In this document: one piece after another, positions 1,921-24,574 of the stretch
Position numbering within the stretch: the first letter of the stretch is position 1
Layout of the letters: the number at the start of each line of letters is the position of its first letter
DNA from: Blastocystis sp. ATCC 50177/Nand II
Lineage: Eukaryota
Length of the DNA: 64,000 nt
Assembly (NCBI GenBank): GCA_039096935.1
Contig: JBBPEE010000035.1
Span: 806,001-870,000 of the forward strand
Direction: 5' to 3'
Translations under genes and position numbers: made by a program
The notes under the pieces: model-generated
The model's database searches: none
What the model saw: the letters and a program-made list of their open reading frames with translations, nothing else
Told to the model about the DNA's origin: nothing

Positions 1921-2399
1921 GACTGGTTAACTCGTCTGATGTGGTCCTCGTTATGGTTGCTCTTCCCAAGGACATCACCTCCCTGTCCACGCAAGCTATG
2001 CTGTCCACCTACCCCTTCGTTTTCTCCCTCTATTGCAGCACCTCCAAGAGGGAATCGCTAGCTATAATGAATGCGTCGATGAAACAGAGTGCCTGTGATG
2101 AGCTTCCTCTCCTTATTTCAATAGACACAGAAAACGGACGTGAATGCATTCAAGCGATTCTACTGCAGTCCTGCGAATACAAACTCCTGTCCTGCTATGA
2201 ATACCCATCCCATCATAGGGCAGAGTCTAATCTGTCCCCAGAACATCCACGATGATGTATACAATGACTGCCTGCTTGAAGAAAGACGAACAATATGCAA
2301 AGCAATCTGAACCGCATAAAAAGAAGAGCTCATTCTGACAGCCAATGCCTAGAGATGAGTAAGATAATGTTGGGTGACTTCCTTTGATTCTAATGAAAT

Positions 2400-4688
2400 C
2401 TCTGTAAAAGAAGGCGCGAGGCAGATGAATTGTGAGAGAAGGCACCTCTAGGCTTGAGGAATGCCGCCCTAGATTCACTCTCGAGAGTGATATGACGAGG
2501 ATTGCGGAGTGTATCACCTTTTTGCGCATTCGTAGTTAGCGATGCAAGTTTTGGCAAGTCTATTCATCAGTTCATTTCACTATCATCACTTCGCATGATC
2601 AATTCACTCGATTCCTCATCATCATTGAAACACAATGCACTCTCACCAAATCGAATGGAAGTCAATTCAAGCAAGTCTACCCATCATTCTCCTTTCCTCC
2701 ATTCACTCTCAAACACTGCACGAGAACACTGATAGAATGAGTAGCAGCCAAATGGAAGTGATTTCAATCGGGGTAAGTCTATTCATCATTTCATCCCCTT
2801 CACTCTTCAATTCCAATGAACCATACTCGAAATTGAGACTCTCTTCATCCAATTCTCCCATTTCGATCACTTCCAAGGAAGGCACATTCTCAATCTCACA
2901 CACATCATAATCAGAGAAGGAATAACGACCCATCTTCAATTCTCTCAACCTCTCACAGTTCTTCAAAGCGAAAGCACGGTTTGCATCATAACTCCAATCA
3001 TTCTTATGCTTCGTGAAACACCTCTCTCCAATCGATTCAATCCAATCAGTCTCACATCATCAACACACTCAAAGCACTTGTCTCCTACCTCAAGCAATCG
3101 CAATTTGGGCATGAAGGACAAATCCAATATTCTCCATTCCCTTCCCTTTCATCCATTCTCCATCACGACCAATTCTTCAATGTGATTATGAAGAAGTAGC
3201 TTCTCTCCATTCAGTATGACTCGTCTAACCATCTTAGTCTCGTTATTCATCCACTCTCCATCAAACACAATGTTGCCTTTTCGATCATAGTGAGTCCCTT
3301 GTCCCCAGCGCCTTCCATCATAAATCTCTCCTTCGTATTCCACCCTCTGGATGTCAGGATAGTAGCTTCTGCCATAGCACACATTCACCTCTTTGAGTCG
3401 GAAGCCCTCATACACCTTCTCTCCATCTGCGTTAAACAACACACCCCAACCATACGGTTTCTCATCAAGCACATCGCCTTCCCATCTCTCTCCATCGTCA
3501 TTCAAATCCAGTACTTGAGCATGCTCAATTCCACTCACCTCCTCTCCATTCACTCGCAACAACTCATGAGCGTTAACATTCACCTCAATCACCCCTTCTC
3601 TACTCAATTCAAAGAGCACGGAAGCAGACTCCTTCACTATTCCTTCATAATACCAACACAATCCGTTGTGTCTGAACGGGGTAACGTAGGCATGCTCATT
3701 CTCATCCCCGATACAGTCGGCAATCACTTTCTGGATCCTCAGTCCTTTCACCAACTCCTGGAGTGGCGTAGAGTAACCATCTTGTTGAATCCTTCGTATG
3801 GACTCTCTCACAAATGGGTGCTACGCCTTAAACCATTTCCCAATCACTCACCTCCATCAATTGCTTCACACTCCATCTTTTATTCACATCCTTCACCAAG
3901 CACTTCTCAACGAAACCAACATACTCTGCAGACCATATCTCGCTGGAAAGAGAAGGGCTCGTTTTGGCAAACCCGGTATTGCACTGCTGTCCTGCAAACA
4001 GCATCTTCGTAAGGATTCCTTCCTGCAGCCAATCCAATCAGTGTAATGCCAAGGGACCACACATCACTCTTCCATTCCCTCTGTCCATCGAATACCTCGG
4101 GTGCTGCATGGCATAACGTCGATCCATTCTCCTTTGAATACAATGAAATGGGTAGACCATAATCACCCAGTTTCACCACTCCATCCTCACCAAAGGGCAG
4201 ATTCGACGCTTTGATGTTCTATGCACTAAGACTATTAGCGTTCAACGACACCATGGATGATGCATTGAGAATGAAGGAAATCGAGACCTAAAAGACAGCA
4301 ACTCGCAATTTCACGCAATGCAACTTCATTCAATCCATTATTCATATTCATGTATTCTTTCAATGATCCCAATTCACAATTCTCCATTACAATCTATTCC
4401 ATTACACAATAGCTGATTTCATACCCTATATTCCTTTTCATCTTCACGGCACTTTACATATCTCACCAAATAGGGAGAATCAAATGTTTCCAGCCTTTGG
4501 AGTGAAGATCGAAATGCAGCATTCCACTTACTCTTCTTTATCACTTTCATCACTACTATTCTATTACTATTCCCTTCCAATGCTTTATAGGTTGCAACTC
4601 CTTCTCTATGTGTCATTGTCTCATCTTGCCGAAGCAGCTCTCTAACAGTTTGGATTATGCTATAGTCATCGGAAGATGACGACTGCAT
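2400..4688 (-). pseudogene. Pseudokinase-MORN-LRR family paralogue A, disrupted
   Basis: Kinase-like N-terminus (IIHG|NIKASN, KLGDYG, APE, SDVWSLG), MORN repeats (WEGDVLDEKPYGWG, YEGEIYDGRRWGQG), LRR exons; frameshift near 3960, TGA at 3149, small deletion near 3030. Confidence 0.8.
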
Positions 4689-7600
4689 TGTTTCTGAATA
4701 GAAGTGAGTGGGATTCTGATCGTTGTTGTTGGACGAGTATTAAATAGAATGAAGTGGGATTGTTCAAATGGAATGGTAGTAACGTGAACAAGGGATGAGT
4801 GTTGATTGGAGCTTCCTATTGTCACCCCTAGTTGGCAATGAATGACTTGTCCTCAATATCATATAGAATGGAATGACATCATGGATATCCACTTCATTCT
4901 TCAGTGTTGTGTTATCTCTACGGGAATGAAGTGTATTTGTGATTATATGAGTGTGGTTATGGATTCTTTGCCTTTCTAAGAGGAAGAATGTTGGCATACG
5001 AAGATGAAGTGGGGAAGAGTTCCTAGCCGTTTCAATGGAATGATGATGTTGTGATATTTCTGAATTGCATTAGTAGGAGTGGAATAAACGAGTGTAGTGA
5101 TAATTCCTGCTGTGTGCTTGCTTTTGATGAAAGAAGAGTGAATATTGATTGAGATTGTTCTCGATTGCATATTGGCATCTCTGCTACGGCTAAGTCTCTC
5201 TGTCCTTCTTGCAAATCGCAACAACAACGGGAAAGTGAAGGAGCTGATTATGTAGTACTGCTGGATTATATTCCGAACCATATGACTGCGCATACTCTCT
5301 TCTCTGATGATCACCTTCTGTTCTATGGTATAGGAGATGGATTGCATGGAAATGAACTGCTACGATGCATTCCATTTTGAATATTGCTTCGTTTGTCATG
5401 AAGTACCTGCATTGGCTGCATTTCCTTCCATTCTTCTCATTATTGTCTTTATCTACCTCCTTCCATTCAATCCCCACTCTATTCATCTTTCTCTCCTGTC
5501 ACTGCTGCTGATTGCAGTCTCTTCTTGCCATTCCAGTTTCCTCTGAAGCCCTCAACGTCTATGCGTACCATAGCCCCATCCGTTGTGCATTTGAAGTGAT
5601 TGTTGGCAACATCGTGCTGATCTTGGAGTTACACTTCCTCAACGCCAGTGAAAACAGCGTGATGCCTTCATTGACTTCCATGAGCACAGTAAACAACAAT
5701 ACCCGGCATGAAGTATGTCCTATCACCATGCCGCTCACCTCCGCCTCGGACATCAAGTCATGGACTGCGAGAAGCCCCACGGCTTCAGCGCCACACTCCC
5801 ACGCGCTGAACAGACCTCGTGAGGATCAACCCTCTCCTGTGTGACCTCCACCGGTCCGATCGCCTCTCCCAGCGCCTTCATCCTCCAACCCGTCTCGAAC
5901 GCCAGCACGGGGTGCACGAGACGACGCACCGCACGAGAACAGCGTGCACGGGGTGTTCAGCCCCTGCCGCCTGCAGACGAGGATGTCGGCACGGGTGTAA
6001 CTACGCTCTCCCACCTGCTTCGTGGCGCCCTCCACCCACCCGAGGGACATCCACGCCAGCAGCAAGTTCACCGACGGTCTGACGCTCGATGCGACCCGTG
6101 CGTGGTGAGCGGCAAGGCGACGACGCACATGCTGTCTGCGACGTGACCTCACCGGCTCGTTCCGTCTGGAGCCTGCGACGATTCTTGCTGCCGTCGTGGA
6201 GTCCTTCTCTGCCCCTGAAAGTGGCGACGGAGCAGGGGCTGTGTGTGGAGGCAGCTCGGGCAGGGGAGTCAGGACGGGAGCAGTCGCCAAGTGCGTGAGT
6301 GCCTGTGAGTGCCTGTGCGGGTCTGGCTTCTCGCGCCTGTGCGTGAACGGATGGGCGGTGAGTGTCTGTGTCCTTCGACGGGAACCCCGTGGGCCGCATC
6401 CCGAACCCTTCAACCGTGACGTGGTGGCTTCTTCCTGACGTGTTGGCGAGGGTCGGGTCATCGCGCCATTCACGACGATCCCTCTGGCGTGGCTGCGGGT
6501 GCATTCGCTCCTCCCTCGCGGCAGTGCCGACTTGCAGCGCATCGCGGTCTGTTCGGCGCCCTCCAGTGGGCGGACTCCATCGCCCCTGCGGTCGCGAGGC
6601 GCTGCTAACAGCACTCACGACAAGGCGATTCTCCTGGCGAACGACGGGTTCTGCACTCGCTTCGCCGTGCCTGCTGAGCCTCCGCTTCTGTCGCCAACCA
6701 GAGCGTGGCGCGGTCCTCCAGCGTCAGCAGCGTGTGCCACACTGTTTCCTGCAGTGCGATGAGCCTTCTCTCCATCGAGCGCATCACGACTGCTGCAGGA
6801 AGGAACAGCCCGAAGCGCCGTGTCGCCTGACCGAGCGAGGGGCGTGTGGCGCTGCAGACCGTGCCGATGCGCTGCTGCGATGGTCTGCTGATCCTGAAGG
6901 GCGTGGACCGGCATGAGAAGGTGAACGAGGCGTCACTCAATCGCTGTGTGTAAAAGCAAGATCTGCATGGATGAAGTGGATATGACGATGCTGGATGTGG
7001 AAAATGTGCATCATTCCGCAGGGCATTCGTGTTGTTCTGTGCGTGGGTGCGATTCAACAGCGATCCGTTCAATGCGTGCAGTGACGAGGCGATCTTGGGG
7101 CGTGGTGAAGATTGGCAGTGTGGAGAACATGCTGGAGAGACGAAGAGAAGATGATGGTGAACAAACGGCAGATGATGTGCGTGATTGGGTTGGTGTGCAA
7201 GGAGTGGATTAGAGTTGTTTTTGACATCAGAATAACTGCTATTGTTTGTTGACAAAACGAAGTCAAGTAATGAAGAATCAGAATACCCTTTCCAGTACAG
7301 CAATAATGAGTGATATAGTACGTATAGGTGATTACGAGTTGTTGGAGATGCAGAATGAAGGGTATGAACAAGAATCAAAGCAATGAAGCATAGAGAGTTT
7401 TTTGACGCATACAAAGCACGCAATCGAACTACAAATGAGATTGTATTGATGACAAGAGTGAAGAATGGACTGGATGTGGAGGGAATCGAATCACGCTTTA
7501 CACAATTGAAAAAACGCAGCAATGAACATCATGTGAGGTATATAGATGCTGTGAAACAGGATGACGAGTTGTGGGTAGTGATTCCGTTTCTAGGTAACTG

Positions 7601-8272
7601 AATAGATTGTGATGGAGAACAATGATTGCTACTCTCTCACACAATTCTTGGAGCATAAGGATTACATGACTATAGAGCAATTGCGTGAAATCGCTCGTGG
7701 TTGTTTATTGGGATTGAAGTATCTTCATAAGAGAGGCATCATGCATGGAGTAAGCATTCTGAAGTGGTAATGAAAGAATAGGACGTGAGACCAGTGAATC
7801 TGTTCCTGACTGAAGATGGTGTGTTGAAACTGGGTTACTACGGACTAACAACCCAAGCAGAGTGCTATTCCATTAAGGAGGCGGATTGTGAAGGAGTTCG
7901 TAGTTTTGCTCCTGAGGTGTTTAGAGGAGAGTATGGAATGAAGAGTGATGTGTGGTCTCTTGGCATTGCTTTGATTGAAATGATGGGAATGAGACCATAC
8001 GATGGGTATGGGGGTCTCTGGATGCGTATGGAAATCCGTGATTGTACACTACCATTCAAAGAAGAGGACATCGAATCAGAAGAATTGATTGATTTCCTGA
8101 AGAAGTGCTTTCTGAAGAAAGAAGAAAGATGGAGTGTGAATGCGTTGCTGAATGTGAGTATGTTGTGTGGGAGAATGATGAGTAGCATCCATTTGTGAAG
8201 GAGTGTGAAGAAGAAGTGTTGACTCCGTTTATGAAGATCCTTAAGAATCAAGAGTATTGTGAATGGATAGTA

Positions 8273-9994
8273 AAGTAGTGGCACAAACCCCTGAAATGGC
8301 ACAAACCCCGGAACGACCTCTTAGTTCTTTTTCACCAATTTTCATGTGGATAGGTATTAGTGTAAGAAACATGTTTATTCAATCAAATGTTCTAGAATCT
8401 TCCAGAATCTTCCAAAACGAATAACAGAAATCATTACCTTTTTGGCCAATCTTCATTATTTCTTTGAGATGAACCGCGTGTTTGCAAGGAGTGAAGTGAG
8501 GAATCAAACCTCACCCAGAAAGAAGTTCAGCGCCATCAAACGGCTGAGCGGCGATGTGAATTGCGATGATGTCGATTCCAATCAACTTCTTCAGAAGAAA
8601 CTGAAACTCTCCAAATCATCCTACTATAGTGCAGTGAATGCGATGAAAGAGGGGAGGGAGGTTGGGCGCAACGGGAGACCACCCTATCTTCGAGATGTGG
8701 AAAAGGTCGAATTTTGGGACTGGGTGGAGTGCAAGTCCCATGAGGGTAATTGTGCAACTATGAAGGAGATGCGCGAGTATGTTACGGACATTGTCCGGGC
8801 CAAACGCCCCGCCGTTTTGCATAACCGGAGATTGGTGTCCAGAGGGTACATTCGCAAAATCTTGGGGGAGGGGGGGCTTTTGCTGGATAAGTGTTGCAAT
8901 TCCTATACTACTAAGAAACTACTATCCATTGATGAGGCGAGCGAGTTCTTCGCTCTCGTGGGTAAGGTTCTGAAAGAGTACGGAATTACACCTGATCTTG
9001 TTTTCAATTTTGACGAATCGTGGATCTCGCCCCAGGACAAGGCGCCGCGCTGTAAAGTAGCTCATGCCCGTGGGGATATCCCTACCAAGAAGCAGGGCAA
9101 TCCGAGAGAGCACTATACTCTGGTAGGCTGTATCTCGGGGGCGGGTCTGGCATTACCCGAGTATTACATTATCCCTCCCAGAAAGCGCCTCGCGCCGATT
9201 CTGGAGAAGATTCATTTGGATAATAACTACATTGCCCAGTCCGCGAAGGGTTGGATGAGCAATGAGAGCTTAGCTCGGTGGATGCGCGATCTGCTGATTC
9301 CCGCGGTAAATCAGATCAGAGGCAACAACAAGGATAGACATGCCCTGATAATAGCAGATGCGCACGCAAGTCGGTATGACAAGGCTGTGGAGCGAGCTTT
9401 AAGAAGTGAAAACATCCATATGGTCATCCTGCCTGCGAAGACCACTGCTCTCCTCCAACCCCTGGACGTGGGGATCTATAGTCCCTATAAGACCCACCTC
9501 AAGGAGTACTGCAAGAGCAACGGGATAGAAGCCGTGCTCGATGCTTCTAGAAACGCCTTTTCGGATGCCTTCACAAGAAGCAACATCCTGCAGGCCTGGA
9601 AGCGAACGACACTGCTTTCTGATGACCACTCCTCCATCCTAGCTCAGCTGCCGGAGAAGAACGAAGAACGCCGCAATTGCCGGAAATCGCGATTGACGGG
9701 AGTGAAGCTGTTCTGAGCCTGGCCAAATTCGGTGTGATAGTGTTTTGTTGTAAACACAAAGAAAATGCAAAAGGGTTTGAAGAAATAGGCCTTGTGGGGG
9801 AGAAATGACGAAAGATACGGTCGACCAATGAGATTTGAGGACCGTTTTTCTCCAGATTCTTCCATAGGAGCTCTTGACTATCTATGGCTTAACCCTAATA
9901 ACTCTTCATGTACTATCCATTGGGCAGGGTAGTGGGCGTTTCGCCGGTGGTCGTTCCGGGGTTTGTGCCATTTCAGGGGTTTGTGCCACTACTT
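8273..9994 (+). mobile_element. pogo/Fot1-like (Tc1/mariner superfamily) DNA transposon copy 1, 1722 bp
   Basis: 46-bp TIR aagtagtggcacaaacccctgaaatggcacaaaccccggaacgacc at both ends; TA duplication at 8271-8272 and 9995-9996; internal transposase. Confidence 0.95.
8469..9716 (+). CDS. pogo-type DD35D transposase, intronless (first ATG 8469)
   Basis: FNFDESW, IIADAHASR, LQPLDVG triad with 35 residues between D2 and D3; GRPP and helical CENP-B-like N-terminus; KGWM motif. Confidence 0.92.
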   Translation: MNRVFARSEVRNQTSPRKKFSAIKRLSGDVNCDDVDSNQLLQKKLKLSKSSYYSAVNAMKEGREVGRNGRPPYLRDVEKVEFWDWVECKSHEGNCATMKEMREYVTDIVRAKRPAVLHNRRLVSRGYIRKILGEGGLLLDKCCNSYTTKKLLSIDEASEFFALVGKVLKEYGITPDLVFNFDESWISPQDKAPRCKVAHARGDIPTKKQGNPREHYTLVGCISGAGLALPEYYIIPPRKRLAPILEKIHLDNNYIAQSAKGWMSNESLARWMRDLLIPAVNQIRGNNKDRHALIIADAHASRYDKAVERALRSENIHMVILPAKTTALLQPLDVGIYSPYKTHLKEYCKSNGIEAVLDASRNAFSDAFTRSNILQAWKRTTLLSDDHSSILAQLPEKNEERRNCRKSRLTGVKLF

Positions 9995-12811
9995 TAAAGA
10001 CTGATGGGAAGGATGCTTATCTAATGATGTGTAAGAATGACATGTACTGGTATGAAGGGCTGATTGAGAGTGCCTCTTCGATGGTAGAGGAATTGTGTTT
10101 GGATGGAGTAATTGAAGTGGATGTTGACTCGCATGCGTTGTTGCACGTGAATGGAAAGGATGTGAATGCAGTTGAACACAATCGGGTGCTGGATTTGAGT
10201 GATGATGGAGAGCGATGGGAAGGCAATGTACTTGACAACAAACCCTGTGGTTGGGGCGTGTTGTATGACAGTGAGAACAGAATGGTGTATGAGGGATTCC
10301 GAATTGGAGATGTGAATGTGTGCTATGGAAGAAGTTACTATCCCGAGAATCAGAAGGTGGAGTATGAAGGAGAGATATACGAAGGAATGCGGTGGGGACG
10401 AGGCACTCATTATGATCGGAATGGAAGCATCGTGTTTGAAGGAGAATGGATGAATAATGAACCGTTAAGCAAGAGAGTAGTGGTGAATGAAGAGAGTCAA
10501 CTCCTTCACAGTCACATTGAAGAGTTGATCGTGAGTAGCAACAGTTGTAATGGAAGGGAATGGAGTGTGCTGGATTTGTCTTTCATGTCCCATTTGCGAC
10601 TGCTTGAAGTGGGTGATGAGTGCTTTGATAATGTGGAAGAAGTGAAGTTGATTGGATTGAAACAATTGGAGAGAGTGGTGATTGGAGAGAAGTGCTTTAC
10701 GAAGAAAAAGAATAGGTGTCCCAGTTATGATGCAAGTCGTCATTTCTATTTGAAGAATTGTGAGAGAGTGAGAGAATTGAAGATGGGTTGTGGTTCCTTC
10801 TATGATTATTCCGTATGTGAGATTGAGAATGTGCCTTCTTTGGAAGTGATTGAAATGGGAGAATTGAATCTATGGAGTGGCAATTACTATTATGCTTCAT
10901 TGGAATTGAAGAGTGATTCTGATAGAATGGAATGATGAATAGACTTGCCCAGTTTGAAATCACTTCTGTTTGGTGATAGTGCATTCCATGATTGTTCTCG
11001 TGCCGTGTTTGAGAGTGAATGGTTTGAAGAGGGAATAATGACTAGATTTGCCCGAATTGACTTCCATTCGACTTGGTGATGATGCATTACGCTTCACTGA
11101 ATATGATGAATCGAGTGAATTGATCATGCGAAGTGATTATGATGAAATGGAATGATGAATAGACTTGCCTAAACTCATAACACTCACTATTGATGAAAGG
11201 AGTGAAACATTCGAGAATCCTCGTTACATCACTCTGGAGGGTACTTCTTATCACTCTATCCTCACAAACAGACATGCCCTCTCTCACCACTGTCACTCTC
11301 CCTCGTGCATTTGAATGCAGAAATCAATTGTCCTACAAGAGTAATCACAATCAGAGAGAGTGATGAATAGATGTTGGTGAATTCGTCAATCATCCTGCCT
11401 TTCTTCGCAATCCCCATGCGAACGTTCATTCTGTTGACGAACTGAGGGCAACGAGTCAAAATGTGGAAGTGATGATAGTGGATCACAATGCATGCAATGA
11501 TAAGTGTTATTATCAGTTGGATTTGTCATCCCTCACGAATCTGAAGGTGTTTGAAGTGGGTGATTATTCCTTTGCCTTTGTGGATGAAGTGAAGTTGATT
11601 GGATTGAATCGATTGGAGAGAGTGGTGATTGGAGAGAAGTGCTTCACGAAGCATAAGGACCGTTATTATGGTGATGATCTAGATCGTCATTTCTATTTGA
11701 AGAATTGTGAGAGACTGAGAGAACTGAAGATTGGCTATTATTCCTTCTCTGACTATTTCGTGTGTGAGATTGAGAATGTGCCTTCTTTGGAAGTGATTGA
11801 AATGGGAGAATTGGATGAATTGAGTTTCATTTTCATGTATGCTTCATTGGAGTTGAAGAGTGATTCTGAAAGAATGAAATGATGATTAGACTTGCCCAGT
11901 TTGAAATCACTCCTGTTTGGCAATTGGACTTTTGAGAAATGCTCTCGTGCCGTGTTTGAGAGTGATTGGACTTAAAAGAGAATGATGAATAGACTTGCCC
12001 AGTTTGAAATCACTTCTATTTGGTGATAGTGCATTCCATGATTGTTCTCGTGCCGTGTTTGAGGGTGAATAGCTTGAAGAGAGAATGATGACTAGACTTA
12101 CCTGAATTGACTTCCATTCGATTTGGTGATAGTGCATTCAGTTTTGACGCAAAGGATGACTCAAGTGAATTGATCATGCGAAGTGGTTATGATGAAGAGA
12201 AGTGATGAATAGATTTGCCTAAACTCACATCCCTCACTACTGTTAAACATGGTGAATGTGGCAGTTACACATTCTGTTGTCCTCATTCCATTACTCTGGA
12301 GGGTACTTCATATCACTCTATTCTCACAAACAGACATGCCCTCTCTCACCACTATCACTCTCCCTAGTGCATTTGAGTACAGAAATCAACTGTCCTACAA
12401 GAGTAATCACGACCAGAGAGAGTGATGAATAGATGTTGGTGAGTTGATCAATCATCCTGCCTTTCTTCGCAATCCCCATGCGAACGTTCATTCTGTTGAC
12501 GAACTGAGGGCAATGAGTCAAAATGTGGAAGTGATGATTGTGGATCACAATGCATGCAATGATAAGTGTTATTATCAGTTGGATTTGTCATTCTTCTCAA
12601 ACCTCAAGGTGTTTGAAGTGGGTGATTATTCCTTTGCTTTTGTGGAAGAAGTGAAGTTGATTGGATTGAGTCAGCTGGAGAGGGTGGTGATTGGAAAGAA
12701 TAGTTTCACGAAACAGAACAATAGTGATGATGATCCAAATCGTCGTTTCTATTTGAAGAATTGTAAGCGATTGAGAGAATTGAAGATTGACGGTTATTCC
12801 TTCTCTGACTA

Positions 12812-14533
12812 AAGTAGTGGCACAAACCCCTGAAATGGCACAAACCCCGGAACGACCTCTTAGTTCTTTTTCACCAATTTTCATGTGGATAGGTATTAGT
12901 GTAAGAAACATGTTTATTCAATCAAATGTTCTAGAATCTTCCAGAATCTTCCAAAACGAATAACAGAAATCATTACCTTTTTGGCCAATCTTCATTATTT
13001 CTTTGAGATGAACCGCGTGTTTGCAAGGAGTGAAGTGAGGAATCAAACCTCACCCAGAAAGAAGTTCAGCGCCATCAAACGGCTGAGCGGCGATGTGAAT
13101 TGCGATGATGTCGATTCCAATCAACTTCTTCAGAAGAAACTGAAACTCTCCAAATCATCCTACTATAGTGCAGTGAATGCGATGAAAGAGGGGAGGGAGG
13201 TTGGGCGCAACGGGAGACCACCCTATCTTCGAGATGTGGAAAAGGTCGAATTTTGGGACTGGGTGGAGTGCAAGTCCCATGAGGGTAATTGTGCAACTAT
13301 GAAGGAGATGCGCGAGTATGTTACGGACATTGTCCGGGCCAAACGCCCCGCCGTTTTGCATAACCGGAGATTGGTGTCCAGAGGGTACATTCGCAAAATC
13401 TTGGGGGAGGGGGGGCTTTTGCTGGATAAGTGTTGCAATTCCTATACTACTAAGAAACTACTATCCATTGATGAGGCGAGCGAGTTCTTCGCTCTCGTGG
13501 GTAAGGTTCTGAAAGAGTACGGAATTACACCTGATCTTGTTTTCAATTTTGACGAATCGTGGATCTCGCCCCAGGACAAGGCGCCGCGCTGTAAAGTAGC
13601 TCATGCCCGTGGGGATATCCCTACCAAGAAGCAGGGCAATCCGAGAGAGCACTATACTCTGGTAGGCTGTATCTCGGGGGCGGGTCTGGCATTACCCGAG
13701 TATTACATTATCCCTCCCAGAAAGCGCCTCGCGCCGATTCTGGAGAAGATTCATTTGGATAATAACTACATTGCCCAGTCCGCGAAGGGTTGGATGAGCA
13801 ATGAGAGCTTAGCTCGGTGGATGCGCGATCTGCTGATTCCCGCGGTAAATCAGATCAGAGGCAACAACAAGGATAGACATGCCCTGATAATAGCAGATGC
13901 GCACGCAAGTCGGTATGACAAGGCTGTGGAGCGAGCTTTAAGAAGTGAAAACATCCATATGGTCATCCTGCCTGCGAAGACCACTGCTCTCCTCCAACCC
14001 CTGGACGTGGGGATCTATAGTCCCTATAAGACCCACCTCAAGGAGTACTGCAAGAGCAACGGGATAGAAGCCGTGCTCGATGCTTCTAGAAACGCCTTTT
14101 CGGATGCCTTCACAAGAAGCAACATCCTGCAGGCCTGGAAGCGAACGACACTGCTTTCTGATGACCACTCCTCCATCCTAGCTCAGCTGCCGGAGAAGAA
14201 CGAAGAACGCCGCAATTGCCGGAAATCGCGATTGACGGGAGTGAAGCTGTTCTGAGCCTGGCCAAATTCGGTGTGATAGTGTTTTGTTGTAAACACAAAG
14301 AAAATGCAAAAGGGTTTGAAGAAATAGGCCTTGTGGGGGAGAAATGACGAAAGATACGGTCGACCAATGAGATTTGAGGACCGTTTTTCTCCAGATTCTT
14401 CCATAGGAGCTCTTGACTATCTATGGCTTAACCCTAATAACTCTTCATGTACTATCCATTGGGCAGGGTAGTGGGCGTTTCGCCGGTGGTCGTTCCGGGG
14501 TTTGTGCCATTTCAGGGGTTTGTGCCACTACTT
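12812..14533 (+). mobile_element. pogo-like transposon copy 2, 1722 bp
   Basis: Same TIRs; TA duplication at 12810-12811 and 14534-14535; same 424-codon ORF. Confidence 0.95.
13008..14255 (+). CDS. pogo-type DD35D transposase, copy 2
   Basis: Translation identical to copy 1 in the ORF track. Confidence 0.92.
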   Translation: MNRVFARSEVRNQTSPRKKFSAIKRLSGDVNCDDVDSNQLLQKKLKLSKSSYYSAVNAMKEGREVGRNGRPPYLRDVEKVEFWDWVECKSHEGNCATMKEMREYVTDIVRAKRPAVLHNRRLVSRGYIRKILGEGGLLLDKCCNSYTTKKLLSIDEASEFFALVGKVLKEYGITPDLVFNFDESWISPQDKAPRCKVAHARGDIPTKKQGNPREHYTLVGCISGAGLALPEYYIIPPRKRLAPILEKIHLDNNYIAQSAKGWMSNESLARWMRDLLIPAVNQIRGNNKDRHALIIADAHASRYDKAVERALRSENIHMVILPAKTTALLQPLDVGIYSPYKTHLKEYCKSNGIEAVLDASRNAFSDAFTRSNILQAWKRTTLLSDDHSSILAQLPEKNEERRNCRKSRLTGVKLF

Positions 14534-15429
14534 TATTCCATATGTGAGATTGAGAATGTGCTTTCTTTGGAAGTGATTGAAATGGGAGAATTGAACGGAG
14601 ATGGTTGCAATTTCAAGTATGCTTCATTGGAATTGAAGAGTGATTCTGAAAGAATGAAATGATGAATAGACTTGCCCAGTTTGAAATCACTCCTGTTTGG
14701 TTATTGTGCATTCCGTGAGTGTTCTCGTGTGGTATTTGAGAGTGAATGGATTGAAGAGGGAATGATGAATAGATTTGCCTGAATTGACTTCGATTCAACT
14801 CGATGGTGGTGCATTTTGTTTCAAGGATAATGAATCGAGTGAATTGATCATGCGAAGTGGTTATGATGAAGAGAAGTGATGAATAGATTTGCCTATACTC
14901 ACAACACTCACTACTGTTAATGGCAGTAGCACATTCTACAGCCCTCGTTCCATCACGCTGGAGGGTATGTCTTATCACTCTGTCCTCACAAGCAGACATG
15001 CCCTCTCTCACCACTGTTACTCTTACCGAGGGCATTGCTTTCAAACGCAGTACAACCGTTCACACCAAGAGTGCCTCTCCCTCCTCTCCCTTATCTCTAG
15101 ACATCTCTCCTGCTCTTTCTTCCTACCTCTCCTTTCCTCCTTCTTTCATACACACCTCTTCCAAACCATTCACCCAACTCCTTATTAATCCCTTTACAAA
15201 CCGCCTTCTCCACTCATGACAAACAAAGACATCACTATGAAGGACTGCTCTGGGATGGATCCCGCAACACACCTCTTCATCCACATGACGCATGAACAAC
15301 AAACACCTCTTCAAAACAATCCCCCTCTCACTCCACCATCAGGAACACAACCCTCCAAAGACCCCGCATCTACCACTGAACCCCCTTCCCCACATCCACT
15401 CTTCTTCACAGAATGACTCACATGTGTGA

Positions 15430-16800
15430 ACGCCTTGACAGGAATCGAAACCCTGCGAACCAACGGCAAGTCTCATCCACTCACTCACTCTCAACAACCA
15501 CATCCCGAACCCAGCGAAACGTCATGTTGACCGTTCTTCTTCCAAACGACGGTGCTGAAATCGCTTCCAATTTCGGCATGTCTATTCCTCATCACCATCA
15601 CACGCCCTCACTTCGCATGACCAGCAGAGAACACCATTCGCGGTCATAGAAGCAGCACGAATAAGACCCCATGTCAATGGACACCAACTCGGGGAGATCT
15701 GCTCATAACACACTCACCCAACAGCCACCTTCGAGAATCACTCTACTGCAGCAATCAAAACTGCCATTTCCCAGCATCAGCATCTTCAGCACAGGCAAAT
15801 CTACTCCTGAACTCACTCCAACACATACCCCTGATTTCAAGCGACGCGGATCGGAAACAGCCCCTTTTCTCATCACTCTCCATCGTGCCCAACTGCACAG
15901 ACTCCAGCATCGGCAGGGATTGGAGAACGCAGGAGGTGCAGCACGAGAAGGAGTCGTTGCCCACGACCAGCGTCTTCAGAGCGGGACAGTCCTTGACGAC
16001 GAAGGGCTTCGATGCGGTAGAGACAGAGTCGCCGATCGCAACGCTCTCCAAGCAGTCTGCCCCCACTAGCTCCACCGCCCCTGCAAACGCGCAGTTGCTG
16101 CCAATCGCAAGCACGCGCAGACGAGGCATAAGCGAGCATTCGAGGCTTTTCCAGTCCGCCAGGAAGCGGGACTCGCTCGGAACGCACAGCTCCTCCACGC
16201 GGTTGTGCAGGACGGTTGGACGGTCGTCGCTCACCACCACCTTCTTCTCCATCTCGTGCTCGTCATTCAGCCACTCGCCTTCAAACACCGTGTTGCCTCT
16301 GCGGTCATACTGAACGCCTCGTCCCCAGCGCTTTCCTTCACACCATTCTCCTTCGTACTCCACCTTCTGAATGTCCGAATAGTACCGCGTGCCGTAGCAC
16401 ACATACGCTTCGCCAATCATGAACCCTTCATACTTCTTCTCGCCTTCTTTATCATACAACACGCCCCAACCACAGGGTTGGTTGTTGAGCACATCGCCTT
16501 CCCATCATCACTCAAATCCAACACCTGCTTGTGTTCAATGCCACTCACGTTCAGCACCGTCTTCTTCTCCACATTCACAACCACCAGCCTCTTCTCGTTC
16601 ACCTCCAACACAACCGAGCCGGCACAAATCACACCCTTGTGAAGCACGGCTCCTTCCTTCCCAACACCGAGCTGGAAAAGGGAAACCGTCATGGAGAGCA
16701 GTTTGAGCGTCAATTCCTCCAGACGCAGGCCAGCGAGTCTACAGAACACACTGCCCAGACAACCCACTTTGGATTGGGAGTCTCAATCGCGTTCATGTCA
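15430..16800 (-). pseudogene. Divergent MORN-LRR family paralogue C; no kinase seen
   Basis: IEHKQVLDLSDDG, MORN repeats QPCGWGVLYD and YEGEWCEGKRWGRG, GC-rich LRRs; frameshifting deletion near 16505 (ERW of DDGERWEG lost). Confidence 0.7.
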
Positions 16801-17543: not shown

Positions 17544-20500
17544 ATGCATCTTTACAACCTCACGATTCACAAACCGTCGGTGGTGCAACGCTCGATCTAT
17601 GGTTGGTGCCGTTTGTGCTGATGTGATGGACATTGGCAGCTTCAGCTCGCCGAAGACGGAGGAGTTTATCATTTCGAGAGGAAACATCATCGAGCTGTGG
17701 AGACTGGACGAAAGCGGAAACGTCAACGTGATCTGCAGCTACGAGGTATACGGTCTCATCCGGTCGCTCAAGCCCTTCCGTTTGTCTGGTACAATCCAAT
17801 CCACTTTCCTAACGCGTAGGAAACGACACGGATTTCATTCTCATCGGCTCGGACAGCGGACGCATCGTGGTACTGTGGTTCAACGGCGAAACGAATGCCT
17901 TTGAGAAAATCCACCAATAGACCTTCGGAAAGGTGGGCGTGATTCGCGGTTTGCCCGGACAGTACCTGGCGGTGGATCCCACCGGTCGCGCCTTCATGAT
18001 CAGTCTTCCCCTTGCAATTGAGTAACTCATAGGCGCGATCGAGAAGCAGAATCTCGTGTACGTGCTGAATCGCGATTCCAAGAACAACGTCACCATTTCC
18101 TCGCCGCTGGAGGCTTACAAATCACAAACCATCGTCCTGACGACGGAGGGACTGGACGTGGGCTACGACAACCCGATCTTCGCCTGCCTGGAGCTAAACT
18201 ACGCGGAGGCGGACGAGGACCCGACGGGCGAGGCTGCGGCGCACACGGAGAAGCTGCTGACGTTCTACCAGCTGGACCTGGGTCTGAACCACGTGATTCG
18301 CAAGTGAAGTGAACGGCGAACCTGCTGGCGCGAGGTGCGAATCCCTCAACACTGTGAGGCGTAGTGCTGGGCGTGGACGGTCCGGGCGGCGTGCTGGTGT
18401 TCGCGGAGAACTGGGTGCTGTACCGCAACGAGGGCCACCCCGAGCTGCGCGTGCCGATTCCGCGACGCGAGTTCTTGCTGGAGGACAAGGGCGTGCTGAT
18501 CGTGGCGTGGGCCCTGTTCCACCAGCGCGTGATTGCAGTGGCGGTGTGTGAGGCGTAGGACAAGTTCTTCTACTTAGCGCAGAGCGAGCTGGGCGACGTG
18601 TTCAAGATCACGCTGGGCTTCGACGACGCGCGCGTGCACGACCTGACCATCCAGTACTTCGACACCATCCCCGTCGCCACCTCACTCCACATCACCAAGC
18701 ACGGCCTGCTGCTGGCCACCTCGGAGGTCGGCGACCAGTATGACTTCTCCTCCTCTCTCACCCGCAGCTGCGTCTATCAGTTCTTCAGCCTCGGCGACGG
18801 CGACGTGGCGGAAGCCTCCTTCTCCACGCTACTCGGTGCGGACGGCTCCGTGCAGATTCCGCTCTTCTCCCCGCGGGAGCTGACCAACATCAAACCCATC
18901 CACTTCCTCCCGTCGCTCGCACCGCTCATCAAACTCCACGCCCCTCATCAAACTCCACGCGCTCTGCGGTCGCGGCAGCCGTGCGCAGCTGAAGGTGTTG
19001 CAACACGGTCTGTCGGTGTCGCTCCTGTCACAAAACACACTGCCGTACGCGCCGCGCGGGCTATGGATGCTGCGCGACGAGCACAGCGGCTGCGACAAGT
19101 TCATGGTGATCAGCTTCAACAACGCCACCATCGTGCTGTCTGTGGGCGACGCTGTGGAGCAGGTCAACGACACGGGCTTCAAGGCGGACGAGGCGACGCT
19201 GCTGGCGGGCGTGCTGGACGGCGGCTCCTACCTGCAGGTGTGTCCCGGCGGCTTCCGACAGATCTTCGAGGACGGGCACACGAAAGTGTGGGATCCCCCC
19301 AGCCGGCGATCGATCGTGTGCGCAGCGATGAACAGCCGTCAGGTGGTGGTGGCCCTGTCGAACGGCGAGGTGGTGTACTTTGAGCTGGACGAGCAGTACG
19401 CGTGGGCAGAACGCGAGAGCCTCAACCGCAAGGAGGAGGTGACGTGCTCTCCGCACAAACCCTGCGCGCACCGTTTTTGGTGGTGGGGTACGGAGACCGC
19501 ACCTGCCGCGTGTACAGCCTGGCGCCCACGGCGCTGCTGGAGGAGATTTCGATGATCACGCTGGACGCCATTCCCTCCGATCTCTCTCTTGATCGCATGC
19601 GCATGGGACAGTCCGTTTCCGCCAATTCTTCTAGCACGACTGGCACGACAACTCACGCTACAGAAACGCTCCTCCTCACGGTGGGCACGGAGAACGGGAC
19701 GGTGCTGCGCGTGGAGGTGGACGAGCGCACGGGCAAGCTGGGCATGGCGCGGTCGCCGCGGCTGCTGGGTCCGCGCCCGATCCGGCTGTTCAAGGTGGTG
19801 GTGGAGGGGCAGCGGTGCGTGTTGGCGCTGAGCCTGAAGCCGTGGCTGTGCTACTGCGCGGGCAACACGATGATGCTGACGCCGCTGGTGTGCGAGAGCA
19901 TGGACTTCGCCGCCTGCTTCAACACGCCGCAGTGCACCGACGGCCTGGTGATGCTGCGCAGCGCCGACCTCCAGATCCTCCGCGTGGACAGCCTCAGTCA
20001 ACCCTTCGCCGCCGCCTCCATGCCGCTCTCCTATACGCCGCGGCAGCTGGCGGCCTACCCCGGCACCTCCTGCCTGATCCTGCTGGAGACGCAGCACCAC
20101 GCCTTCTCGGAGCTGGAGAAGCAGGCCTTCTACCAGCAGCACGACGTCGCCTACGTGAACGAGTACGATTGCGGCGCGCCCGTGCCCGCCGACCGCGAGA
20201 AGTGGGCCTCCTGCATCCGCGTGGTGGACGCGGCGACGCTGCGCACGCTGGAACGCTTCGAGCTGGCGGACAACGAGGCGGCCTTCTCCGTGTGCGTGTG
20301 TCCCTTCCACGACAAGGGCGAGGAGCCGTTCGTGGTGATCGGCACGGCGAAGAACCTTCGCCTGCACCCGCGCAGCTGTTCCGAGGGCTTCATCTCGGTA
20401 TTCCGCTTCGTGGAGGGGCGCTTGCTGGAGTTGGTGCTCCTCTTTGTGGAGGGGCGCTTGCTGGAGTTGGTGCTCCTCTTTGTGGAGGGGCGCTTGCTGG

Positions 20501-20868
20501 AGTTGGTGTTCCGCTTCGTGGAGGGGCGCTTGCTGGAGTTGGTGCTCCTCTTTGTGGAGGGGCGCTTGCTGGAGTTGGTGCTCCTCTTTGTGGAGGGGCG
20601 CTTGCTGGAGTTGGTGTTCCGCTTCGTGGAGGGCCGCTTGCTGGAGTTGGTGCTCCTCTTTGTGGAGGGGCGCTTGCTGGAGTTGGTGCTCCTCTTTGTG
20701 GAGGGCCGCTTGCTGGAGTTGGTGTTCCTCTTTGTGGAGGGGCGCTTGCTGGAGTTGGTGTTCCTCTTTGTGGAGGGGCGCTTGCTGGAGTTGGTGCTCC
20801 TCTTTGTGGAGGGCCGCTTGCTGGAGTTGGTGCTCCGCACGGAGGTGGACGAGGTGCTGTCGGTAGGC
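17544..20868 (+). pseudogene. SF3B3: Splicing factor 3B subunit 3 (SAP130/Rse1) pseudogene, truncated
   Basis: MHLYNLT start, [63 protein letters not shown]; nonsense codons TAG 17918 (HQ*TFGK) and TGA 18305 (RK*SE); frameshifts; 3' part replaced by TE sequence. Confidence 0.92.
20401..20832 (+). repeat. 12 x 36-bp tandem repeat (xxFVEGRLLELV) with a 108-bp higher-order period
   Basis: Unit starts run FR,LL,LL,FR,LL,LL,FR,LL,LL,FL,FL,LL. Confidence 0.95.
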
Positions 20869-22093
20869 CTTCTCCTCCACCGGGGTGATCTTCTCTAGTT
20901 CTACTACACCGACGCTGTCCTTCTCTATGTCATCTTCACAGATGATTCTTCTTCTTAGGGCTTTTCCATCCTCTCCGTCATTCTCCTCCATTTGTCTTAT
21001 CCTTGGATCCTCCACACTTAACAGAGAGAGGAGAGTAACACGGTTCTTATCATTCATGTAAGTGGACTTGAAGCTCTCCTTCCAGAAGAAGGCCTTCTCT
21101 CGGTCCAATTGACTCGGGAGTCTGAACAGATCTGTCAACTGCTCTCGCGCTTTTCCAACCACCGTTCGCCTGATTCTTCAGCAACCCAAGAAGGTATTCA
21201 CAGAAGAAGTCATCCTTCTCCTTCATCGTGCCGCCGTTGATGGTATTCTCGAAGAGGTGAATGGCGTTATGCCAGCTGGTGTTCGTGAAGCCAGGAGGAG
21301 TGATCGTTTCAATCACCCCCATGAAGAACTTGAGTCTCTTCTGTGCCTCAAGAGCCCTTTCAGGGTACCGATTGAAGGCATACAAGTAGCCTATCAACTG
21401 CAGACACTCAGACAGAGCAAAGATGAACGGATGACTCAAAGAGTCCTGGAAGACCCATCTGAAGAGACAGAGACAGAAGAGGATCTTCTGCTCGCACGTC
21501 AGCTTCACGTAGTAGGAGGGAAGAATGATGTCCTCCATCACCCATGTGAATCCAACCTGCTCCTGACGGAATTGACGCAGCCGCTGCATCGCACAGACCA
21601 TAGTCGCCTCCGGGTTTTTCCATATTTCCATGGAATCAACAGGCAGCCCATTCTTGTCCCTGAATAGACCATTGATGCACTCCGAAAAGGCCGGTAAATC
21701 CGCCATGACAGATGGAGTAGGAAGGAGCCCATTCATGTATCGGAGGTTTCGGTAGAAGAAATTAGGAATGAAATGCATACAATCCAAGAGACTCCGGGTC
21801 TTCTCCTCCACCGGGGTGATCTTCTCTAGTTCTACTACACCGACGCTGTCCTTCTCTATGTCATCTTCACAGATGATTCTTCTTCTTAGGGCTTTTCCAT
21901 CCTCTCCGTCATTCTCCTCCATTTGTCTTATCCTTGGATCCTCCACACTTAACAGAGAGAGGAGAGTAACACGGTTCTTATCATTCATGTAAGTGGACTT
22001 GAAGCTCTCCTTCCAGAAGAAGGCCTTCTCTCGGTCCAATTGACTCGGGAGTCTGAACAAATCTGTCCACTGCTCTCGCGCTTTTCCAACCAC
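20869..22093. repeat. ~294-bp direct duplication (20869-21162 and 21800-22093)
   Basis: cttctcctccaccggggtgatc...ttttccaaccac present twice, offset 931 bp, very few mismatches. Confidence 0.92.
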
Positions 22094-22850
22094 TGTACGC
22101 AACGTAGATCCTGTTCACCAGTAGATGCCTCCCTCTCCAACGCATTGATCTTGTCGACTCGTTCCTTCTTACTGCTCCTATTCGCAACAAAGCTATCATT
22201 CGTGTAAACGTCCTGCGCTCCAGAGGAGTAGAAGGGTGGGGAGACATCCCCGCTAATCGCTCTCTTCCCCAAAGTACACTCAAGGTCATACTGCTGATAG
22301 AGCCCTGTGAAAGGCTCCAGTCTCCAACGCTGACAGTCCCCAAACATGCAGTGGTGAGCCGAACAATGCTTCGCCGGATGGTTGGAGAACGCCTCCAAGG
22401 CCATCATATTTCCGCATATCCAATCTGCTACCCAACGAACATGATGGCATTTACAATGTAGTTGTAATACACACCTTCTTCTCCCACCGCACTAAGCACC
22501 TTCAGTATGGAATTCGCTCTCTCCTCACACTTCTTCTTCCCTCCCTTTCCCATCACCGTGACAAACCGCGAGAACACCTCGTTCACCGCATTATAGCAAT
22601 TGCAGTTCTCAATCAACAGGGACAATGCATAGAAGGATGAGTACTTCCTCGTGTAATTGTCGTAGGCAACAAAGCCATCTGTGAAGATGTTGAGAAAGAC
22701 GGTGTGTTCAACACCTCGCGCATCCCAGCTGGACAACGGCGCGTAATTGGAGGTGAGTTCTTCTCACGAGGACCTTCAAGAAAGGGAGCATCTTCATGTG
22801 GAGAACAAGGAGATGCACATGCTGTCAGTACTGTTACTCTTAACAAGGAA
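21163..22850 (-). mobile_element. Broken CACTA/EnSpm(CMC)-like transposase
   Basis: LNIFTDGF, HHCMFGDC, LDCMH, HNAIHL...GTM...FFCEYLLGLLK resemble conserved EnSpm-type transposase blocks in the expected order; split over several frames; termini not found. Confidence 0.6.
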
Positions 22851-22852
22851 TA

Positions 22853-24574
22853 AAGTAGTGGCACAAACCCCTGAAATGGCACAAACCCCGGAACGACCAC
22901 CGGCGAAACGCCCACTACCCTGCCCAATGGATAGTACATGAAGAGTTATTAGGGTTAAGCCATAGATAGTCAAGAGCTCCTATGGAAGAATCTGGAGAAA
23001 AACGGTCCTCAAATCTCATTGGTCGACCGTATCTTTCGTCATTTCTCCCCCACAAGGCCTATTTCTTCAAACCCTTTTGCATTTTCTTTGTGTTTACAAC
23101 AAAACACTATCACACCGAATTTGGCCAGGCTCAGAACAGCTTCACTCCCGTCAATCGCGATTTCCGGCAATTGCGGCGTTCTTCGTTCTTCTCCGGCAGC
23201 TGAGCTAGGATGGAGGAGTGGTCATCAGAAAGCAGTGTCGTTCGCTTCCAGGCCTGCAGGATGTTGCTTCTTGTGAAGGCATCCGAAAAGGCGTTTCTAG
23301 AAGCATCGAGCACGGCTTCTATCCCGTTGCTCTTGCAGTACTCCTTGAGGTGGGTCTTATAGGGACTATAGATCCCCACGTCCAGGGGTTGGAGGAGAGC
23401 AGTGGTCTTCGCAGGCAGGATGACCATATGGATGTTTTCACTTCTTAAAGCTCGCTCCACAGCCTTGTCATACCGACTTGCGTGCGCATCTGCTATTATC
23501 AGGGCATGTCTATCCTTGTTGTTGCCTCTGATCTGATTTACCGCGGGAATCAGCAGATCGCGCATCCACCGAGCTAAGCTCTCATTGCTCATCCAACCCT
23601 TCGCGGACTGGGCAATGTAGTTATTATCCAAATGAATCTTCTCCAGAATCGGCGCGAGGCGCTTTCTGGGAGGGATAATGTAATACTCGGGTAATGCCAG
23701 ACCCGCCCCCGAGATACAGCCTACCAGAGTATAGTGCTCTCTCGGATTGCCCTGCTTCTTGGTAGGGATATCCCCACGGGCATGAGCTACTTTACAGCGC
23801 GGCGCCTTGTCCTGGGGCGAGATCCACGATTCGTCAAAATTGAAAACAAGATCAGGTGTAATTCCGTACTCTTTCAGAACCTTACCCACGAGAGCGAAGA
23901 ACTCGCTCGCCTCATCAATGGATAGTAGTTTCTTAGTAGTATAGGAATTGCAACACTTATCCAGCAAAAGCCCCCCCTCCCCCAAGATTTTGCGAATGTA
24001 CCCTCTGGACACCAATCTCCGGTTATGCAAAACGGCGGGGCGTTTGGCCCGGACAATGTCCGTAACATACTCGCGCATCTCCTTCATAGTTGCACAATTA
24101 CCCTCATGGGACTTGCACTCCACCCAGTCCCAAAATTCGACCTTTTCCACATCTCGAAGATAGGGTGGTCTCCCGTTGCGCCCAACCTCCCTCCCCTCTT
24201 TCATCGCATTCACTGCACTATAGTAGGATGATTTGGAGAGTTTCAGTTTCTTCTGAAGAAGTTGATTGGAATCGACATCATCGCAATTCACATCGCCGCT
24301 CAGCCGTTTGATGGCGCTGAACTTCTTTCTGGGTGAGGTTTGATTCCTCACTTCACTCCTTGCAAACACGCGGTTCATCTCAAAGAAATAATGAAGATTG
24401 GCCAAAAAGGTAATGATTTCTGTTATTCGTTTTGGAAGATTCTGGAAGATTCTAGAACATTTGATTGAATAAACATGTTTCTTACACTAATACCTATCCA
24501 CATGAAAATTGGTGAAAAAGAACTAAGAGGTCGTTCCGGGGTTTGTGCCATTTCAGGGGTTTGTGCCACTACTT
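22853..24574 (-). mobile_element. pogo-like transposon copy 3, 1722 bp, inverted
   Basis: Same TIRs; TA duplication at 22851-22852 and 24575-24576. Confidence 0.95.
23131..24378 (-). CDS. pogo-type DD35D transposase, copy 3
   Basis: Translation identical to copies 1 and 2. Confidence 0.92.
   Translation of the reverse strand: MNRVFARSEVRNQTSPRKKFSAIKRLSGDVNCDDVDSNQLLQKKLKLSKSSYYSAVNAMKEGREVGRNGRPPYLRDVEKVEFWDWVECKSHEGNCATMKEMREYVTDIVRAKRPAVLHNRRLVSRGYIRKILGEGGLLLDKCCNSYTTKKLLSIDEASEFFALVGKVLKEYGITPDLVFNFDESWISPQDKAPRCKVAHARGDIPTKKQGNPREHYTLVGCISGAGLALPEYYIIPPRKRLAPILEKIHLDNNYIAQSAKGWMSNESLARWMRDLLIPAVNQIRGNNKDRHALIIADAHASRYDKAVERALRSENIHMVILPAKTTALLQPLDVGIYSPYKTHLKEYCKSNGIEAVLDASRNAFSDAFTRSNILQAWKRTTLLSDDHSSILAQLPEKNEERRNCRKSRLTGVKLF

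Follow-up and report, generated by a model that had tools for sequence, protein, structure and literature searches.

A transposon-broken Blastocystis gene with one-turn, phase-1 leucine-rich repeat exons in near-fixed order, from a family of likely cytosolic sensors or scaffolds

We analysed a stretch of 64,000 nt (the window) from Blastocystis sp. ATCC 50177/Nand II (assembly GCA_039096935.1, contig JBBPEE010000035.1, positions 806,001 to 870,000 of the forward strand). It carries a gene that starts at window position 7306 and encodes a kinase fold (Pfam E 3.6e-13), a MORN-like region (weak Pfam match) and three blocks of leucine-rich repeats (LRRs). In the reading that we favour with moderate confidence, this gene, broken by transposons, belongs to an expanded Blastocystis family that combines a STE20-like kinase fold with MORN and LRR regions. 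One-turn exons with phase-1 introns stand in near-fixed order in its LRR blocks, and its products are likely cytosolic sensors or scaffolds that vary mainly by short exchanges of sequence between gene copies. A first-pass annotation of the locus had suggested that such exons are freely combined to form a diversified intracellular sensor repertoire.

Domain architecture and family membership

Pfam matches on the gene are restricted to the kinase, the MORN region (weak) and the LRRs, and a ROC-COR GTPase tandem was not found. A kinase profile made from the family ranks MST1/MST2 first (E 7e-46), as does a Foldseek search with the model of protein P0007; the single kinase exon of the window, taken alone, ranks Nek7/MEK6 first. 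The glycine-rich loop, HRD and DFG motifs are not intact in this subfamily, which has HG(D/G)xRPxN and G(Y/T)YG and lacks GxGxxG. Because HRD and DFG are degenerate, the kinase-fold domain is a predicted pseudokinase and is probably inactive. The sister proteins P0024 and P0026-P0029 retain HRDIK and DFG.

Named homologues all come from Blastocystis subtype 1, both among the 36 matches of one search and among the 120 matches listed of 888 in a second. A subtype-1-specific clade of 58 STE20/7 kinases with an unexplained role has been reported (PMC5608401), and the present family is likely to belong to it as a putative member. The two have in common the STE20-like kinase and, as far as named homologues go, subtype 1; the subfamily examined here differs in being without HRD and DFG. 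The words leucine, LRR and MORN are absent from the main text of that paper. Our literature searches, which left out subscription papers and most supplements of PMC5608401, found no description of the family in Blastocystis, in agreement with the first-pass annotation. Subtype 1 has 366-404 LRR-superfamily matches, subtypes 3 and 4 have 204-247, and tortoise isolates 53-66 (PMC12129017, supplement). The gene offers a candidate anatomy for the unexplained subtype-1 STE20 expansion, in which a probably inactive kinase is combined with hypervariable LRR solenoids, an arrangement that suggests a role in sensing or binding.

The whole LRR block is present one to four times per protein and stands on several kinds of N-terminus (kinase-MORN, kinase-LRR-coiled coil, MORN only, a Pro/Thr-rich protein, or none, leaving LRRs only). 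P0012 illustrates the use of the block in a very different protein: it lacks a kinase, and its four LRR blocks follow a Pro/Thr-rich repeat region. The intracellular placement proposed earlier agrees with a search for transmembrane segments: in 14 proteins, no hydrophobic 19-mer scored higher than 1.82. Judged from this architecture, the products of the family are likely ligand-binding sensors or scaffolds of the cytosol.

The best Pfam match of the LRRs is LRR_EndoS. LRR_5 scores 13-14 bits in P0001 and P0032, against a cut-off of 27.7 that is passed solely by the more distant P0021. A model of the LRR-only protein P0022 is a confident β-rich solenoid (pLDDT 89.6), and its Foldseek matches to LRR proteins are weak. 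Judged by eye, P0140, P0154, P0180, P0195, P0224 and P0266 carry MORN repeats together with what looks like a membrane span, and their long LRR frames are uninterrupted; these six may be a surface-type branch within this repeat family.

Exon organization of the LRR blocks

Each of the three blocks opens with a large exon (L) that holds about five turns, and cassettes A, B, C and D come after it (Table 1). Symmetric one-turn exons make up four of the approximately nine turns in a block, and the rest lie free of introns in L. The cassette exons listed in the first-pass annotation have the positions and the lengths divisible by three that it gave (72, 87, 78 and 69 nt, with 72 nt for each of the two A cassettes of block 2), and they have AG and GT ends. 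It had also reported introns of 30-31 nt, all in phase 1. Frame arithmetic carried out piece by piece gives the same result, all 16 introns between 10913 and 15100 being GT-AG, 30-31 nt long and phase 1, and no piece of the gene before the last exon contains a stop.

Introns of 30 nt are usual in human-associated Blastocystis (PMC12129017, PMC5608401), so the intron length here is ordinary and it is the uniform phase that is specific to the LRR part. The four upstream introns of the kinase region, in contrast, have phases 2, 0, 0 and 0. The 16 phase-1 introns are not independent, because four of the five intron positions carry one common 3′ motif, which in the window is confined to these LRR junctions. 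The uniform phase could be explained if one ancestral intron had been copied together with the repeat.

Cassette A2b matches A1 at 70 of 72 positions, as reported, and this had been taken as direct evidence of exon duplication. The tandem A pair itself recurs in L105, an allele of the window locus from another assembly (98.98% identity over 1667 nt). The 70/72 match is weak evidence; it falls to 67/72 in L105 and is therefore specific to one allele. The two tandem cassettes agree at only 57 of 72 positions.

Cassette order across the family

A 20 nt motif at the end of B was used to collect 119 metagenome loci, a sample that favours loci keeping B. Three same-contig overlaps were dropped, and the remaining 116 loci and the window were examined with a profile for each cassette type, yielding 550 adjacent junctions in which alleles are counted repeatedly. 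The order L-A-B-C-D is kept in 539 of these genomic junctions, and in 540 GT-AG stands at the phase-1 positions that the profiles predict. Database proteins give the same picture, with the canonical order in 222 of 223 junctions from 132 sequences. Across 71 complete blocks the length of A is constant at 72 nt, that of B varies from 81 to 96 nt and that of C from 75 to 99 nt, and neither stops nor frameshifts were found in the A, B and C cassettes of any of them.

The 11 non-canonical junctions (six A-A, two B-A, two L-B and one B-B) reflect about seven events. Cassettes are gained and lost in frame (A-A, B-B, A-B-A-B and loss of A) at about 2% of junctions, which upholds the earlier claim of change without a frameshift as far as gain and loss are concerned. 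An 18 nt consensus spanning the intron end and exon start is common to L-A, A-B and B-C; D-L has it in part, and C-D is different. In all 11 exceptions an A or B cassette follows L, A or B, which are the junction classes that carry this motif, and none occurs at C-D, as unequal crossing-over predicts. Out-of-register crossing-over at the motif (L-A, A-B, B-C) would gain or drop one cassette in frame. B can probably be lost as well, because the DNA run X1 contains genomic joints of the A-to-C type in addition to A-to-A.

The window copy at 29-33 kb has a B-A-B arrangement that is also found in L005. L075 and L097 have identical A, B and C cassettes followed by an internal-type D in one and a terminal-type D in the other, as the collapse of a multi-block gene would give.

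Splicing was examined in contigs over 10850-11430 from X1 and from runs X17 and X14, which we presume to be RNA. Contig depth in X17 and X14 falls across the intron bins, and no such falls are seen in X1. Loose ends and joints of the contigs correspond to L-to-A at 10943, A-to-B at 11014/11046 and B-to-C at 11132, with D-to-L joints also present. The spliced L-A, A-B and B-C types come from paralogues of the window locus; the family is transcribed and spliced. No clear skipped isoform appears among the joints listed for these contigs, which drop rare variants (15 joints in each of two sets, which hold 154 and 67 more), and to this extent the skipping part of the earlier claim found no counterpart.

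The repertoire proposed by the first-pass annotation would involve free skipping, swapping and duplication of cassettes, in the DNA or by alternative splicing, as in the ROCO genes of Ectocarpus. Every cassette is indeed symmetric, and 11 non-canonical junctions exist. L014 and L060, with flanks like those of the 29-33 kb paralogue of the window to which they are allelic, lack A, and the C of one block is joined there to a terminal D, although the two may be one sample and possibly chimeric. One X14 contig joins 11240, the end of C, to the next large exon at 11371 with unknown letters between; this joint could arise without skipping, because there are paralogues whose D exon is only 59-72% like D1. 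Against such a repertoire stands the 98% fixed order, which is unchanged in allele L105 including its A-A pair. Moreover, no identical exon is common to any of 52 non-allelic blocks in this partial sample of the family (closest pairs 96-97% for A, 93% for B and 91% for C), and linkage within cassettes (r2 0.032-0.036) is no higher than across their borders, a comparison of low power. The cassettes are four distinct exon types and are not interchangeable one-LRR units of highly variable number and order, and we consider a combinatorial repertoire very unlikely.

Short exchanges between copies

Differences between alleles are clustered beyond chance in 19 of 28 pairs; in L001 and L015 all 20 differences over 1007 nt lie within one intron and exon B. 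In the 11 allele pairs at least 96.5% alike we called 39 clusters. LRR segments hold 23 of them, 6-40 nt long (five in A, two in B, one in D, seven in L, five in introns and three crossing a border). An exact non-allelic match exists for six of the 39 clusters versus none of 1170 random controls, and certain tract states recur across several assemblies. In the window, three bases of A1 within 11 nt differ from L105 and equal A2b with the flanking sites unchanged, which places this candidate tract within the exon; the comparison allows transfer in either direction.

A PHI-like test of recombination gave p=0.002. Segment correlations dropped below those of clonal simulations within L (0.29) and between B and C (0.30); between A and B (0.42) they did not. 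Incongruence, which exon shuffling should produce between neighbouring exons, was equally strong within the large exon, which has no introns, and from one side of an intron to the other, and nothing indicates that introns are the sole breakpoints. Ectopic gene conversion with tracts of tens of bases could reshuffle residues in this manner, including those of the loops described below.

Several observations weigh against exchange as the main source of variation. Sixteen of the 39 clusters lie outside annotated LRR segments, and clusters are present in an unrelated flanking gene as well (L042/L049). In the partial family sample 33 clusters are without a donor, and the random control is lenient because paralogues will match an ancestral state too. 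The PHI-like test gave p=0.015 on one of three clonal simulations, and most alleles come from one short-read assembly.

A rival idea is that the clustered differences and some odd junctions are artefacts of assembly or polishing between paralogues, the true variation being old point mutation. The loci do come from low-coverage short-read metagenome assemblies, paralogues have exact 20-mers in common, and the A1 tract, which equals A2b of the same gene, could be mis-polishing, as that process would yield just such a match. Yet the window shares A-A with L105 and B-A with L005, E-B occurs in two assemblies (perhaps of one sample), and some tract states are found in several assemblies. We regard this explanation as highly improbable.

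Variable loops and selection

The A, B and C peptides are distinct in all 52 non-allelic blocks. Variation is centred on the x positions of G-x-x-A-F-x-x-C and on equivalent positions inside L, with 12-17 different residues at the variable positions of A among 35 blocks. In the P0007 model these positions lie in the loop that separates strand 596-599 of a turn from strand 609-613, so that one exon corresponds to one two-stranded turn.

Non-synonymous (pN) and synonymous (pS) differences were computed on 33 blocks, two with a disrupted L having been dropped, and the loop codons were chosen after the alignment had been viewed. Between paralogues, pN at the loops (0.41-0.62) exceeds both the overall pS (0.37) and the intron distance (0.26-0.31). 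Omega is 1.67 at 16 loop codons (pooled; twice the log-likelihood difference, 7.4) versus 0.43-0.44 in the framework. Fourteen allele pairs show residue changes in 14 of 98 loop codons versus 9 of 448 framework codons. These values are tempered by the inflation of omega through recombination and the post hoc choice of loops, by the lack of significance for exon A alone, and by an allelic loop pN (0.071) that is only on a par with the rate in introns (0.064) and with pS in the framework (0.085). Together they suggest diversifying selection on the loops, short of proof.

The same loops might instead be a neutral by-product, in which an intron-bearing unit was duplicated, the loops are unconstrained and conversion is background among tandem paralogues, with no selected repertoire. 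The neutral allelic rate of loop change agrees with this, as do a raised pS at the loop codons themselves (0.43-0.64) and the clusters of differences outside the LRRs. The condition of the family loci in the window agrees as well. Further members lie on the minus strand at 2200-4690, 15500-16800 and 29400-32960, and tblastn finds a frame change or stop in each, so that with the transposon-broken gene all four copies look damaged. What neutrality leaves unexplained is the excess of paralogue loop pN over pS and intron distance, the pooled omega, the 71 blocks whose A, B and C cassettes are all open, and the transcription and splicing of the family. We judge it unlikely, though credible enough to keep some weight.

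If the favoured reading holds, the loops would make a variable binding face linked to a probably inactive kinase domain; as a guess, the putative ligands could be microbial or viral proteins that enter the cytosol. A bolder version would have subtype 1 maintain an innate-immune repertoire against microbes or viruses by ongoing templated diversification of cytosolic pseudokinase-LRR receptors, with tracts copied among dozens of paralogues into the loops, blocks grafted on new N-termini and cassettes gained or lost at the junction motif. We think this quite doubtful.

Comparison with known systems

Arrays with one LRR per exon, uniform phase and variable repeat number are known from Ectocarpus and other brown algae (PMC3341825, PMC11378527) and from Tetrahymena (PMC6564038), with phase 2 stated in PMC11378527 and PMC6564038. 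The Blastocystis family is like these arrays in its symmetric repeat exons and apparent ectopic recombination, but its exons are not interchangeable. Symmetric one-repeat exons do not, then, necessarily imply free shuffling.

The ROCO and LRR-kinase genes of brown algae likewise belong to stramenopiles and carry each LRR on a symmetric exon of about 72 nt, in combination with an intracellular signalling domain and with signs of diversifying selection (PMC3341825, PMC11378527). One-LRR-per-exon shuffling in Ectocarpus ROCO genes, mentioned in the first-pass annotation, is described (PMC3341825, PMC11378527): these genes have homotypic 72 nt phase-2 exons, 13 versus 17 repeats in recent duplicates, spare exons in introns and alternative splicing. 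By contrast, the Blastocystis family has phase 1, four exon types in fixed order and no ROC-COR, and its introns of 30-31 nt leave no room for spare exons. The Ectocarpus LRR-kinases, with repeat exons but none that showed reshuffling or inactivation, are the closer parallel. Tetrahymena LRR genes with 90 bp exons resemble the family as protist arrays with an extreme phase bias and some kinase fusions, the bias being ascribed to clonal origin with unequal crossing-over or gene conversion (PMC6564038). They differ in their phase 2, single exon length, 1-51 exons per gene and thousands of genes (PMC6564038), whereas Blastocystis mostly duplicates the five-exon block and only rarely changes single cassettes.

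The BspA/TpLRR proteins of Trichomonas and Entamoeba also form an expanded LRR family in mucosal anaerobic protists, with an AFxxC-type motif (PMC2843621); the weak LRR_5 scores of the Blastocystis family and the relatives noted by eye to have MORN repeats and a predicted membrane span add to the likeness. The published TpLRR pattern has no match in 20 Blastocystis proteins, and unlike BspA/TpLRR the protein studied here is fused to a kinase, is without a membrane span and has LRR_EndoS as its best Pfam match.

The VSG, ves and vlsE antigen families diversify by segmental gene conversion. Short tracts apparently copied from paralogues into variable regions are a point of likeness, but the Blastocystis proteins are predicted to be cytosolic, and neither an expression site nor a silent archive nor programmed switching is evident in the family.

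Transposons and other features of the window

Two identical DDE_1 transposons break the gene, a feature absent from the first-pass annotation, and a third identical copy lies elsewhere in the window (Table 1). Because the copies are identical, they suggest that DNA transposition is recent in this genome and struck one gene twice. Identical transposon pieces occur at very high contig depth in run X17, and the element was not found in the 119 metagenome loci.

Table 1. Features of the kinase-fold and LRR gene and its transposons (window positions)
Feature	Position	Strand	Remarks
Kinase-fold exons 1-4	7306-7361, 7394-7574, 7606-7749, 7782-8153	+	introns phase 2, 0, 0, 0; STE20-like
Exon 5, first part	8186-8272	+	kinase-fold region; broken by transposon copy 1
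DNA transposon copy 1	8273-9994	+	1722 nt; 46 nt perfect terminal inverted repeats; TA duplication; breaks exon 5
DDE_1 transposase open reading frame of copy 1	8472-9716	+	
Exon 5, remainder	9997-10912	+	MORN-like β region and intron-free large LRR part L1 (block 1)
Cassette A1	10943-11014	+	72 nt, phase 1-1
Candidate conversion tract in A1	10973-10993	+	bases 10978, 10987 and 10988 differ from L105 and equal A2b
Cassette B1	11046-11132	+	87 nt, phase 1-1
Cassette C1	11163-11240	+	78 nt, phase 1-1
Cassette D1	11272-11340	+	internal type; 69 nt, phase 1-1
Large LRR exon L2	11371-11859	+	489 nt, phase 1-1; about 5 intron-free turns
Tandem cassettes A2a, A2b	11890-11961, 11993-12064	+	72 nt each; 57/72 alike; pair also in allele L105
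Cassettes B2, C2, D2	12096-12182, 12213-12302, 12334-12402	+	
Large LRR exon L3	12433-12811 and 14536-14639	+	two pieces flanking transposon copy 2
DNA transposon copy 2	12812-14533	+	1722 nt; identical to copy 1; TA duplication; inside L3
Cassettes A3, B3, C3, D3	14670-14741, 14773-14856, 14887-14964, 14996-15070	+	D3 of terminal type
Last exon	15101-15219	+	ends at first in-frame stop; real end may be earlier
Transposon copy 3	22853-24574	-	identical; 1722 nt

A different insertion of about 930 nt, unlike the window transposon, interrupts a large LRR exon of L052 (1004-1931). Elsewhere in the window, at 20289-20936 and 20866-22096, a 36 nt tandem array of about 13 copies lies at the end of a long open reading frame and adjoins a 99% identical direct repeat with copies 931 nt apart. 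Finally, a perfect inverted repeat at 56249-58951, with arms of about 1.24 kb and a 232 nt spacer, is either a palindromic duplication or an assembly artefact.

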